DNA of 40,006 nt, taken from IMG/VR virus record IMGVR_UViG_2568526473_000002, positions 1 to 40,006 of that record. One strand, written 5' to 3'. Source of the stretch: a virus (Duplodnaviria > Heunggongvirae > Uroviricota > Caudoviricetes). The position numbers and the translations under genes are program-made. Positions 34,624 to 38,451 of the stretch are shown piece by piece; the first letter of the stretch is position 1, and each line of letters begins with the position of its first letter. The notes under the pieces were generated by a model. That model saw only the letters and a program-made list of their open reading frames with translations, was not told the origin of the DNA and ran no database searches.

Positions 34624-35668
34624 ATTTCAGCGCCCGACGCTGGCAGAAAATATCAGTATGCTCCGTAACGATTTATTCGCCAGGCTGGACGTCAGCGACA
34701 CGCTCCGGCGCATGGATGAAGACGTGCGGGCAAAGGTGTATGCGGCGGCGCTGCATACGGTTTACGGTTACATCGATTATCTGGCAATGAACATGCTGCC
34801 TGACCTGTGCGATGAGTCCTGGCTGGCGCGACATGCTGCGATGAAACGGTGTCCGCGCAAGGGGGCCACGGCTGCCAGCGGGTATATGCGCTGGGAAGGT
34901 GTCAGCGATGGCCTGAAGGTGACCGCCGGGAGTGTTATTCAGCGCGATGACCTGGTTCAGTACACGGCAACTGCCGATGCAACCAGCTCCGGTGGTGTCC
35001 TGCGCGTGCCGATCGCCTGCTCAAGTGCAGGCGCGGTCGGTAACGCTGACGACGGTACGTCATTAATCCTGGTCACGCCGGTGAATGGTCTGCCGTCTTC
35101 CGGCGTGGCAGATACCCTGACAGGTGGATTTGATACTGAAGAGCTGGAAACGTGGCGCGCCCGCGTCATTGAGCGGTATTACTGGACGCCTCAGGGCGGG
35201 GCTGACGGGGACTATGTTGTCTGGGCTAAAGAAGTGCCAGGCATTACCCGTGCATGGACATACCGCCACTGGATGGGAACGGGGACTGTCGGTGTGATGA
35301 TTGCCAGCAGTGACCTGATTAATCCCATTCCGGAAGAATCAACGGAAACGGCGGCAAGACAACACATTGAGCCACTGGCCCCGGTGGCAGGCTCTGATTT
35401 GTATGTATTCAGGCCGGTGGCGCATAAAGTGGATTTTCATATCCGCGTGACGCCGGACACACCAGAAATACGGGCTGCCATTACCGCGGAGTTGCGTTCG
35501 TTCCTGCTGCGTGATGGTTATCCGCAGGGAGAGCTGAAGGTGTCGCGTATCAGTGAAGCGATTTCCGGTGCGAACGGGGAATACAGCCATCAGTTGCTTG
35601 CACCGGCAGACAATATCTCCATTGCGAAAAACGAACTGGCGGTTCTGGGGACGATTTCATGGACGTGA
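34610..35668 (+). CDS. Baseplate J-like protein (Mu gp47-like)
   Basis: 352 aa, position and size typical of baseplate J. Confidence 0.75.
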
Positions 35669-36243
35669 CAAACGATGATTACATCCGTCTGTTGTCAGCA
35701 CTGTTGCCGCCCGGTCCGGCGTGGTCAGCCAGCGATCCGGCGATTGCCGGTGCAGCACCGTCATTAACCCGTGTTCATCAGCGTGCGGATGCCCTGATGC
35801 GGGAGCTGGATCCGCGCACCACCACCGAACTGATAAACCGCTGGGAGCGTCTGTGCGGCCTGCCGGATGAATGTATTCCCGCAGGGACACAGACCCTTCG
35901 CCAGCGTCAGCAACGGCTGGATGCGAAGGTTAACCTGGCGGGCGGCATCAACGAGGATTTTTATCTTGCACAGCTTGCTGCCCTGGGCAGACCAGATGCC
36001 ACCATCACGCGATACGACAAAAGCACCTTCACCTGCTCATCGGCCTGTACTGACGCGGTGAATGCGCCGGAATGGCGGTATTACTGGCAGGTCAACATGC
36101 CAGCTGCCACCAACACCACCTGGATGACATGTGGTGATCCCTGTGATTCCGCACTGCGTATCTGGGGCGACACCGTTGTCGAGTGTGTGCTTAACAAACT
36201 CTGCCCTTCGCATACCTACGTAATTTTTAAATATCCGGAGTAA
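35659..36243 (+). CDS. Tail protein (Mu gp48-like, DUF2313-like)
   Basis: Position directly upstream of the tail fibre gene. Confidence 0.6.
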
Positions 36244-36246
36244 TCC

Positions 36247-36885
36247 ATGCATCGTATAGACACGAAAACCGCGCAGAAGGATAAGTTCGGCGCGGGTAAG
36301 AACGGTTTTACCCGTGGTAACCCCCAGACCGGCACACCTGCCACCGATCTGGATGATGACTACTTTGACATGTTGCAGGAAGAACTCTGCAGCGTGGTGG
36401 AGGCATCCGGTGCCAGCCTGGAGAAGGGGCGGCATGACCAGCTGCTTACCGCGCTTCGTGCGCTGCTGTTAAGCCGCAAAAATCCGTTTGGCGATATCAA
36501 ATCGGACGGCACGGTGAAAACGGCTCTCGAAAACCTTGGTTTGGGAGAAGCGGCAAAACGGAATGTGGGAACAGGGGAAAATCAGATACCAGATATGTCT
36601 GCATTTCCATCTGGCAAAAACTGGTTTCAGTTACCAAGTGGTCATATTGTCCAAATGTTTTCGATGAATGTTTATGGGGCGGACACTAACGGAACTACAG
36701 GTAATTTCCCTATTGCATTTCCTTCAGGCGCACTGGCTGTTAGTGCCTTATGGTCAGATGGCACATTAACGGCTGCTCCGACCTTTAAACTTATGGGGTA
36801 CACGACAACAAGGACATCAGTAACCTTAAAAGTATCAACCGGAAATGGTTTGTATGGAACTATGATTATCGCAATAGGAAGATAA
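36247..36885 (+). CDS. Tail fibre protein, expressed orientation (conserved N-terminus, variable C-terminus)
   Basis: Contains the crossover motif LGLGE encoded at 36536-36549; followed by a tail fibre assembly gene. Confidence 0.75.
36536..36549. other. Left inversion crossover site (gix/pix-like), ttggtttgggagaa
   Basis: 14-bp perfect inverted repeat of 38372-38385, embedded in an AAACC..GGTTT-type pseudo-palindrome (tcgaaaaccttggtttgggagaa). Confidence 0.7.
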
Positions 36886-36886
36886 T

Positions 36887-37330
36887 ATGAATCAATATAT
36901 TTATTCCCCTTCGGAAAATGCTTTTTATGCTGTTAATTTAAAAAACACTTATGAAGTAAATGGAACATGGCCTGCTAATGCATTAGATATTCCTGATGAT
37001 ATTTCTGTAAAATATATGGCGGAACCGCCACAAGGGAAAATCCGAGTTGCAGGGGAAAATGGTTTTCCCACATGGGCTGAAATACCTCCACCATCACATG
37101 AGGAACTTATTGAACAGGCCGAATCAGAGAGGCAATTATTGATTAACCAGGCCAACGAATACATGAACAGTAAACAATGGCCCGGTAAAGCCGCTATTGG
37201 TCGTCTGAAAGGTGAGGAACTGGCGCAATATAATTTGTGGCTGGATTATCTGGATGCACTGGAGCTGGTTGATACCTCCAGTGCGCCAGATATTGAATGG
37301 CCTACGCCTCCGGCAGTTCAGGCCAGATGA
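36887..37330 (+). CDS. Tail fibre assembly protein (expressed orientation)
   Basis: Directly downstream of the tail fibre gene; conserved C-terminal text ...LDYLDALELVDTSSAPDIEWPTPP typical of Tfa proteins. Confidence 0.75.
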   Translation: MNQYIYSPSENAFYAVNLKNTYEVNGTWPANALDIPDDISVKYMAEPPQGKIRVAGENGFPTWAEIPPPSHEELIEQAESERQLLINQANEYMNSKQWPGKAAIGRLKGEELAQYNLWLDYLDALELVDTSSAPDIEWPTPPAVQAR

Positions 37331-37904
37331 CATCCGGCGCGGTGCTGGTATCTGTTGCCGTCACCGCGTCAATGTAATCCAGCACAGCGTTAAGTCTGGT
37401 TGTTTCTGCCTGCGTCGGTTTACGTCCGGCCTGCAATTTCAGTTGAATCAGACTGATGGAAGCCATTGCTGCATCAATCAGTGACTGGCGCTGTGCTTCT
37501 GCCGCTTCTACTGCGGCACCGTGTTGTGCCTCAGTATCTGTCACCCATTTTTCACCATCCCATTTATCGTATGGAGTTAACGGGGCGATAGTGGTTGTAT
37601 TTTCGGGATAGTCGCCTAGTGCTGTGATTTCTTTGGCATCTCCCGTTTCGGTGTTATAGACGATTTCACCGCGATGGTCTGACACATATTCCCATGATTT
37701 TAAATCCACAGAACGGCAAATTGTATAACCAGCCTTAGATGTACCAGGAGCGTCTAAACAGGAATATGCTGGAATACCGACACCCACTGCAAGATATTCA
37801 GTTGATGCAGAAATATATTCCCGCGTCTCACCATCATAGTTATAGACGGTAATATTCCCCGCCTTCGTGGTAATAAGCTCGCTATTTAATACGGCGTTAT
37901 CCAT
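37302..37904 (-). CDS. Alternative tail fibre assembly protein (inverted cassette)
   Basis: Opposite strand; C-terminal text ...VLDYIDAVTATDTSTAPDVIWPELPEA parallels the plus-strand Tfa C-terminus. Confidence 0.75.
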   Translation of the reverse strand: MDNAVLNSELITTKAGNITVYNYDGETREYISASTEYLAVGVGIPAYSCLDAPGTSKAGYTICRSVDLKSWEYVSDHRGEIVYNTETGDAKEITALGDYPENTTTIAPLTPYDKWDGEKWVTDTEAQHGAAVEAAEAQRQSLIDAAMASISLIQLKLQAGRKPTQAETTRLNAVLDYIDAVTATDTSTAPDVIWPELPEA

Positions 37905-38440
37905 TATGCAGCCCTCACGATATAGTTAAATGCAATATTTCGTGGACGGGTTTCACTCCCGCCAGTATTACCGATACTCCCTCGTGAATGAAGTGTCGGT
38001 GATGGGATCAGACTCCCTCCGGCAGCGGCAGCATCAAGCCCCCTGCCTTGCTTATATGCTCTTCTGAAGATTGTCGCTAGTTCCCATTCCTCTTTTGAGT
38101 CATACCCATCGTTGGCGACAACAGGATGACGGTGCTTTTCCAGCATTCCGGCCTGAATACTCAATAAAACACGTCCTGCATCAATACCGCGCCCGTCATC
38201 CCAGCCACGAATAAACTCACCGCGTAAATCAGGTAATTTATTTGTTGGATAAGCCTTTGCCAGTTCCGGGTATTCTTCAGCAGAAAATGCCGCACCGTTG
38301 CATTTCAGCCAGCCTGTTGGCGGTGTGGCTGAAGGCCATGGAACAGGCACACCAACAGGTAATGCAGAGCCTTCTCCCAAACCAACGTTTATGAAAATGA
38401 AGAAATAACAAGCAAATGGCATCATTCCTGCTTTTACCAA
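37904..38440 (-). CDS. Alternative tail fibre C-terminal (receptor-binding) cassette, promoterless in the current orientation
   Basis: Reading frame passes through the right crossover site, encoding the same LGLGE junction; no plausible own N-terminus. Confidence 0.7.
   Translation of the reverse strand: MVKAGMMPFACYFFIFINVGLGEGSALPVGVPVPWPSATPPTGWLKCNGAAFSAEEYPELAKAYPTNKLPDLRGEFIRGWDDGRGIDAGRVLLSIQAGMLEKHRHPVVANDGYDSKEEWELATIFRRAYKQGRGLDAAAAGGSLIPSPTLHSRGSIGNTGGSETRPRNIAFNYIVRAA
38372..38397. other. Right inversion crossover site (gix/pix-like), ttctcccaaaccaacgtttatgaaaa
   Basis: Pseudo-palindromic site of Gin/Hin/Pin type (AAACC..GTTT core); inverted repeat of the left site; immediately upstream of the invertase remnant. 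Confidence 0.7.
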
Positions 38441-38451
38441 GGGGATTTAAC

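Follow-up and report, generated by a model that had tools for sequence, protein, structure and literature searches.

The window analysed here is a stretch of 40,006 nucleotides (nt) from IMG/VR virus record IMGVR_UViG_2568526473_000002 (Caudoviricetes), and the element in question is an invertible tail-fibre segment near its right end, in which the 3' part of a fibre gene, two tail-fibre assembly genes and an opposed, silent fibre cassette lie between two inverted crossover sites. The window is 99.9% identical to Escherichia coli 2012C-4221 (NZ_CP027437.1), the nearest sequenced strain. Region 36524-38397, about 1.85 kilobases (kb), is very probably an allele of the P segment of e14-type prophages, since its sites match those of K-12 e14 at 28 of 28 bases each and its gene order and sequence also match. 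The locus comprises the following features, with protein lengths in amino acids (aa) and site lengths in base pairs (bp):

35659-36243, plus strand: ymfQ, a Mu Gp48-like baseplate gene (Pfam Phage_Mu_Gp48, E=9.4e-27), directly upstream of the fibre gene
36247-36885, plus strand: tail-fibre gene of the StfP/YcfK type, 212 aa (Pfam Gp53-like_C, E=2.7e-08)
36524-36549: left crossover site (pix type), CTCTCGAAAACC TT GGTTTGGGAGAA, a 26-bp pseudo-palindrome with its core at 36536-36537
36887-37330, plus strand: tail-fibre assembly (chaperone) gene of the TfaP type, 147 aa (Pfam Caudo_TAP, E=5.6e-34), cognate to the Gp53-like cassette
37302-37904, minus strand: tail-fibre assembly gene of the TfaE type, 200 aa (Pfam Caudo_TAP, E=5.5e-32), cognate to the Collar cassette
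37904-38383, minus strand: silent alternative C-terminal cassette of the StfE type (Pfam Collar, E=1.1e-15), without the constant N-terminus
38372-38397: right crossover site, TTCTCCCAAACC AA CGTTTATGAAAA, a 26-bp pseudo-palindrome with its core at 38384-38385
38452-38556, plus strand: pin invertase remnant of about 32-35 codons, with the catalytic-serine motif YVRVSTNDQ kept and the remainder deleted
38473-38536: homologue of the Fis enhancer of hin, 88 bp from the core, with G-N13-C cores at 38473-38487 and 38522-38536 and TAATG between them
38559-38711, plus strand: C-terminal remnant of DLP12 tfaX, joined to the pin stub ('missing N-terminus' in the Prokaryotic Genome Annotation Pipeline, PGAP)

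Judging by its ymfQ neighbour, the fibre gene closes the late tail operon. The 212-aa fibre, annotated as WP_023307734.1 in E. coli 2012C-4221, consists of a constant part (36247-36535, residues 1-96 and the first base of codon 97) and a variable C-terminal part, the Gp53-like_C cassette, which starts at 36538. Its N-terminal 101 aa differ from those of K-12 StfP at one position (91, K for Q), and divergence begins after the GLGE motif. The TfaP-type chaperone shares 68 of 126 aligned residues with K-12 TfaP, with a conserved C-terminus, and the TfaE-type chaperone shares 173 of 200 (86.5%) with K-12 TfaE. The original prediction correctly placed two assembly genes between the repeats but described them as divergent, a term that holds for their sequences only: the genes are convergent, and their 3' ends overlap by 29 bp (37302-37330). 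The coding motif for the Tfa C-terminus also occurs as a 76%-identical direct repeat, at 37268-37304 in tfaP and 38664-38700 in the tfaX remnant. On the opposite strand, the mechanical open reading frame (ORF) of the StfE-type cassette, 37904-38440, takes in 23 unrelated leader codons before it reaches a TTG at 38440; K-12 stfE, at the same position, is annotated as a pseudogene. This ORF, labelled 'phage tail protein', is thus a silent cassette and not a free-standing gene, which matters for annotation.

The segment is delimited by an inverted repeat whose arms, as located by a repeat finder, span 36531-36550 and 38371-38390 (20 nt, 19 of 20 complementary). A perfect inverted repeat of 14 bp had been claimed; the repeat is there, but its perfect part, read directly from the bases, is 15 nt long (36536-36550 and 38371-38385). 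The 15-mer TTGGTTTGGGAGAAG occurs exactly twice in the window, once on each strand, and the motif AAACSWWSGTTT is confined to the two crossover sites. In shuffled versions of the window, the 15-mer gave 0.05 matches with up to 2 mismatches allowed, and none of 100 shuffles contained two or more; a repeat arising by chance is ruled out by these statistics together with the identity to the e14 sites. Searches with AAACSWWSGTTT or the 15-mer revealed no further crossover sites in the window of the kind expected for a multi-site, shufflon-like system. As proposed, the repeat lies inside pseudo-palindromes: each site has a 12+2+12 layout, with half-site symmetry of 9/12 and 8/12, and the cores match, TT at the left and AA at the right being TT on the opposite strand in inverted orientation. 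The comparison with gix and pix sites was likewise borne out, both by the identity of the two site contexts to the P-segment crossover sites of e14 and by a layout shared with hixL.

At the left, the site covers codons L97-G-L-G-E101 of the 212-aa ORF, where the original prediction had put it. At the right, the opposed cassette was said to encode the same LGLGE junction; it reads I-N-V-G-L-G-E instead, so that the site covers V-G-L-G-E, only GLGE is common to both, and the core splits the L/V codon. The sole mismatch between the repeat arms, 36535 (C) against 38386 (C), is the cause of this codon difference.

When the segment was inverted in silico between the core dinucleotides, the constant 96-97 residues became fused in frame to the Collar C-terminus, giving a protein of 256 aa, and the Collar cassette's own Caudo_TAP chaperone gene came to sit directly downstream of the fusion. 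The same arrangement is found in nature. In MB06231, window positions 36531-38390 match at 99.5% on one strand, while the opposite strand matches the flanks (35600-36550 and 38371-38546); these matches overlap exactly in the repeat arms, so the inversion breakpoints lie there. The recombinant sites read ATTTTCATAAACG TT GGTTTGGGAGAAG beside pinE and CTTCTCCCAAACC AA GGTTTTCGAGAGC beside ymfQ, that is, each outer half-site has kept its position while the inner ones have moved, as expected for exchange at the core. An annotated 256-aa protein of MB06231, the Collar cassette on the constant N-terminus, equals the in-silico fusion except for a few substitutions, as anticipated by the original claim that about 100 constant aa would be joined to an alternative C-terminus with its cognate chaperone.

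ET979 and ET670, two frog-gut isolates from one site that both have an intact pinE, become identical over 7,626 bp (0 mismatches) when the ET979 segment is turned round in silico between its cores. What the switch does to the phenotype could be studied cleanly in this natural pair. A count over 5,426 complete E. coli genomes put 56 in the orientation of the window and 62 in the flipped one, based on window positions 35900-38546, as they stand or inverted in silico, at a coverage of at least 80% in one place; the two sets are distinct, because coverage is capped at about 70% in a genome whose segment lies the other way round. Inversion at exactly these two sites therefore occurs in nature for this allele, as the proposal of an invertible segment present in both orientations had required. 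Where assemblies of this locus differ in orientation, the cause is biological and not misassembly, and the expressed fibre of the prophage can take two forms in related strains.

The comparison with K-12 e14 is close throughout. Gene order and orientation are the same (ymfQ-stfP-tfaP-tfaE(-)-stfE(-)-pinE), and DNA identity reaches 96.2% in the constant region (35600-36565), 87.8% in the tfaE region (37163-37954) and 92.9% from the 5' part of stfE to the 5' part of pin (38152-38546). The two prophages have the same StfE N-terminal part and C-terminal end but differ in the stretch of the cassette between them. The StfP-type C-terminus and the N-terminal half of TfaP represent another allele than that of K-12 e14, without a blastn match over 36565-37163, and the segment measures 1,846-1,860 bp in the window versus 1,797 bp reported for K-12 e14. 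Its orientation corresponds to the 'non-inverted' state of the MG1655 reference. The prophage of the window occupies the argU/DLP12 site and looks complete, whereas K-12 e14 lies at icd and is defective; pinE is present in K-12 e14, whereas in the window about 32-35 codons of pin are left, joined to tfaX'.

A segment of this type is not new in kind. The Pin/P segment of e14 has been known since the 1980s, and PMC4272514 credits it to Plasterk and van de Putte (1985). Its inversion by PinE has been seen as a phase-variable locus through whole-genome sequencing and polymerase chain reaction (PMC4272514), and the segment is described as about 1.8 kb long, flanked by TTGGTTTGGGAGAAGG repeats and inverted by PinE, with inverted P segments in 33% of 562 genomes (PMC12529663). 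Work on PinQ dates from 2025, and the allele is annotated in more than 100 genomes. The likeness to the Mu G and P1 C segments that had first been noticed is supported, but the closer description is an allele of the e14 P segment; the copy in the window is a degenerate member of this Pin family, because a functional invertase is missing.

At the position of the pin stub, relatives carry an intact PinE of 184 aa. The stub reads MLIGYVRVSTNDQNTDLQRNALNCAECDRIFEG..., matches only profile positions 2-37 of 145 of Pfam Resolvase, and is described by PGAP as 'recombinase family protein, incomplete, missing C-terminus'; an intact adjacent serine recombinase of about 180-200 aa with a C-terminal helix-turn-helix is lacking beside the segment. 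Homology of the stub ends at 38546 against intact pinE and at 38558 against the invertase of the P2-like phage pro483, and homology to the tfaX-appY region of K-12 DLP12 starts at 38559, with 95.7% identity onward. A deletion therefore fused the pin codons to the last ~50 codons of tfaX. The joint at 38547-38558 reads GGGTAAAATGAGA/GTGAGC, which hints at a brief stretch of microhomology to tfaX, AGTGAG.

The retained stub also holds a candidate enhancer. The enhancer of Hin is 65 bp long, lies about 100 bp from hix and has a Fis site at each end, with ATTTA and TAATG between them (PMC3798978). In hin of Salmonella enterica subsp. diarizonae, which matches the pin stub at 73 of 95 nt, the cores lie at nt 25-39 and 74-88 with ATTTA/TAATG between, so that the enhancer spans hin nt 25-88 and its homologue falls wholly within the stub. 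By this homology, 38473-38536 may act as a Fis-dependent recombinational enhancer.

Taken as a switch, the locus would work as follows. The fibre promoter, the start codon and the first 96-97 codons remain outside the segment, downstream of ymfQ, and the segment carries two opposed cassettes, one of the Gp53-like_C and TfaP type and one of the Collar and TfaE type. A serine invertase of the Pin family would flip it by cutting at the central dinucleotides 36536/37 and 38384/85 of the inverted 26-bp sites. The present orientation would express the 212-aa Gp53-like fibre, and a flip would give the 256-aa Collar-tipped fibre. The enzymology is borrowed from the literature on Hin, Gin and Pin: invertase dimers would bind both sites and assemble with the Fis-bound enhancer on supercoiled DNA, and serine-phosphodiester cuts at the 2-bp cores would be followed by a 180-degree rotation of one subunit pair and religation (PMC3798978 and general knowledge). 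Each fibre tip, with its own chaperone, may confer a different adsorption specificity or host range. The adjacent invertase gene is truncated, so the copy in the window cannot flip itself and would need an enzyme in trans.

Could the repeat instead be a by-product of the shared GLGE coding motif, with the opposed cassette a decayed duplicate? The perfect part is short (15 nt) and coding on both sides, and the adjacent invertase is non-functional, as such an origin would allow. Yet the identity reaches into the non-homologous outer half-sites, where 12+2+12 pseudo-palindromes equal to the e14 sites are found, natural inversion breakpoints fall exactly at the repeat, the population is split 56 to 62, and inversion of e14 has been shown experimentally (PMC4272514, PMC12529663). 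A by-product is refuted by the site identity, the breakpoints and the population split, and has next to no probability left. Co-option by the host, in which orphan or chimeric products of the StfE/StfE2 kind would block the adsorption of other phages, is improbable rather than refuted. According to PMC12529663, T2 adsorption is inhibited by StfE2, a product that arises when the e14 P segment is inverted, and in the window the same leader MPFACYFFIFINVGLGE stands ahead of the orphan cassette, where inversion would create a StfE2-like ORF of 134 aa. From integrase to tail, however, the prophage seems complete and holds few pseudogenes, which makes the classical role of a fibre switch the simpler reading; its StfP-type C-terminus is strongly unlike that of K-12, so the T2 effect is not transferable to the window; and the window copy is non-inverted and without an invertase. 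A simple scan for sigma-70-like promoters gave 2 weak matches versus 5.1 expected, none of them upstream of the orphan ORF.

For a fibre switch, the remaining alternatives concern its present state. We consider it probable that, barring the action of a related invertase in trans, the segment is frozen in the Gp53-like orientation; the prophage is presumably functional in other respects. That the switch is still active, flipped in trans by a Pin-family invertase from another prophage or a plasmid, is possible but rather doubtful. In its favour, the locus retains both sites and the enhancer homologue in intact form. Invertases of this group (Hin, Gin, Cin and Pin) can stand in for each other. 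PinQ, when overproduced, inverts the e14 P segment in trans (PMC12529663). The window and the only matching genome share one orientation, on the other hand, and a pinE deletion in K-12 locks the P segment in the non-inverted state although chromosomal pinQ and pinR are present (PMC12529663); because of this locking, a frozen segment is rated above active inversion in trans. It is unlikely that a segment without its own invertase but with sites and enhancer is a 'slave' switch run wholly by the invertase of another prophage. If it were, it would form a cross-prophage circuit like the PinQ-e14 defence against T2, on an apparently complete, inducible prophage, and the host range of one resident phage, or its superinfection-blocking product, would be under the control of another. 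With its lost invertase and surviving cis elements, the locus offers a natural test of cross-prophage flipping at native Pin-family expression, which bears on the recent claim of cross-prophage inversion as a phage defence.

Several points weigh against the reading of a host-range switch that is now frozen. In a distant blastn search of the 2012C-4221 chromosome, the segment alone found 2 places, the segment with the 3' 460 nt of pinE found 3, and addition of pinQ brought the number to 4, which points to one pinE-like and one pinQ-like locus elsewhere in that chromosome; if intact and expressed, these loci, seen as match counts, would make inversion in trans possible. The pin-tfaX junction occurs in 1 of the 5,426 complete E. 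coli genomes, in the same orientation as in the window, and is thus uninformative about locking. Evidence for both orientations comes from other strains that carry the allele. The candidate enhancer is assigned by its resemblance to hin and by a simple G-N13-C pattern, and the proposed difference in specificity is based on the different C-terminal domains (Gp53-like_C and Collar) and the analogy to Mu and P1.

Set beside other inversion systems, the locus combines features of several. The hixL site of S. enterica subsp. diarizonae, TTCTTGAAAACC AA GGTTTTTGATAA, follows the same 26-bp plan, with imperfect 12-bp half-sites and a 2-bp core. As in the Hin/Gin/Cin family, the invertase gene begins about 70 bp from one site, and the enhancer-like sequence in the first ~90 nt of the stub recalls Hin in particular; unlike these systems, the window is without a functional invertase in cis. 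Hin, moreover, switches a promoter and not a coding fusion. The split fibre gene, with the constant part outside the segment and alternative C-termini and chaperones inside, is the plan of Mu and P1, but Mu S/U and the P1 fibres are far longer than the fibre of the window, which has a constant part of about 97 aa and a total of 212 or 256 aa.

Phage pro483 (NC_028943.1, 2501-5077) carries a homologous module of tfa, tfa(-), Collar(-) and invertase, with 84-90% DNA identity to window positions 36525-38558. Its right site (CTTCTCCCAAACCAACGTTTATGAAAAT) is identical to that of the window, and the fibre junction motif is also the same. The constant part of pro483, by contrast, is the N-terminal portion of a 399-aa fibre of the P2 H type and bears no relation to that of e14 StfP, and the invertase is intact (197 aa). 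Homology starts only at window position 36525, at the edge of the left site, so that the whole invertible module appears to have been exchanged between fibre N-termini; pro483 illustrates the known modular exchange of such segments. Within a phage collection, no intact phage with the same segment was found at a region coverage of at least 80%, and matches were modular only, to SfIV, SKA5 and 720R4 for the constant part and to P2-like phages for the invertible module.

The wider window (1-40006, especially 1-918 and 38559-40006) represents nearly the whole of a lambdoid prophage at the tRNA-Arg/intD (DLP12) site, apparently a complete relative of the cryptic prophages DLP12 and e14 alike: its early genes are lambda-like, its head is of the HK97 type, its contractile tail resembles those of Mu and e14, and its right end (tfaX'-appY) is that of K-12 DLP12. 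In E. coli 2012C-4221, a lambdoid prophage that seems complete, with the same types of head and tail, occupies this site, and the region of the invertible segment makes up its right end, which finishes in tfaX'-appY-ompT. As in K-12 DLP12, the prophage contains ybcK (10720-12246), encoding a large serine recombinase of 508 aa, and emrE (10133-10465), a multidrug efflux gene. There is no obvious tie between ybcK and the invertible segment; it is unlikely as the flipping enzyme, being of the integrase type and not of the Hin family and also occurring in K-12 DLP12, where such a segment is absent. Between the tfaX remnant and appY lies a very AT-rich spacer of about 550 bp (38712-39256), 95.7% identical to K-12, which is typical of DNA that was acquired horizontally and is probably bound by H-NS.

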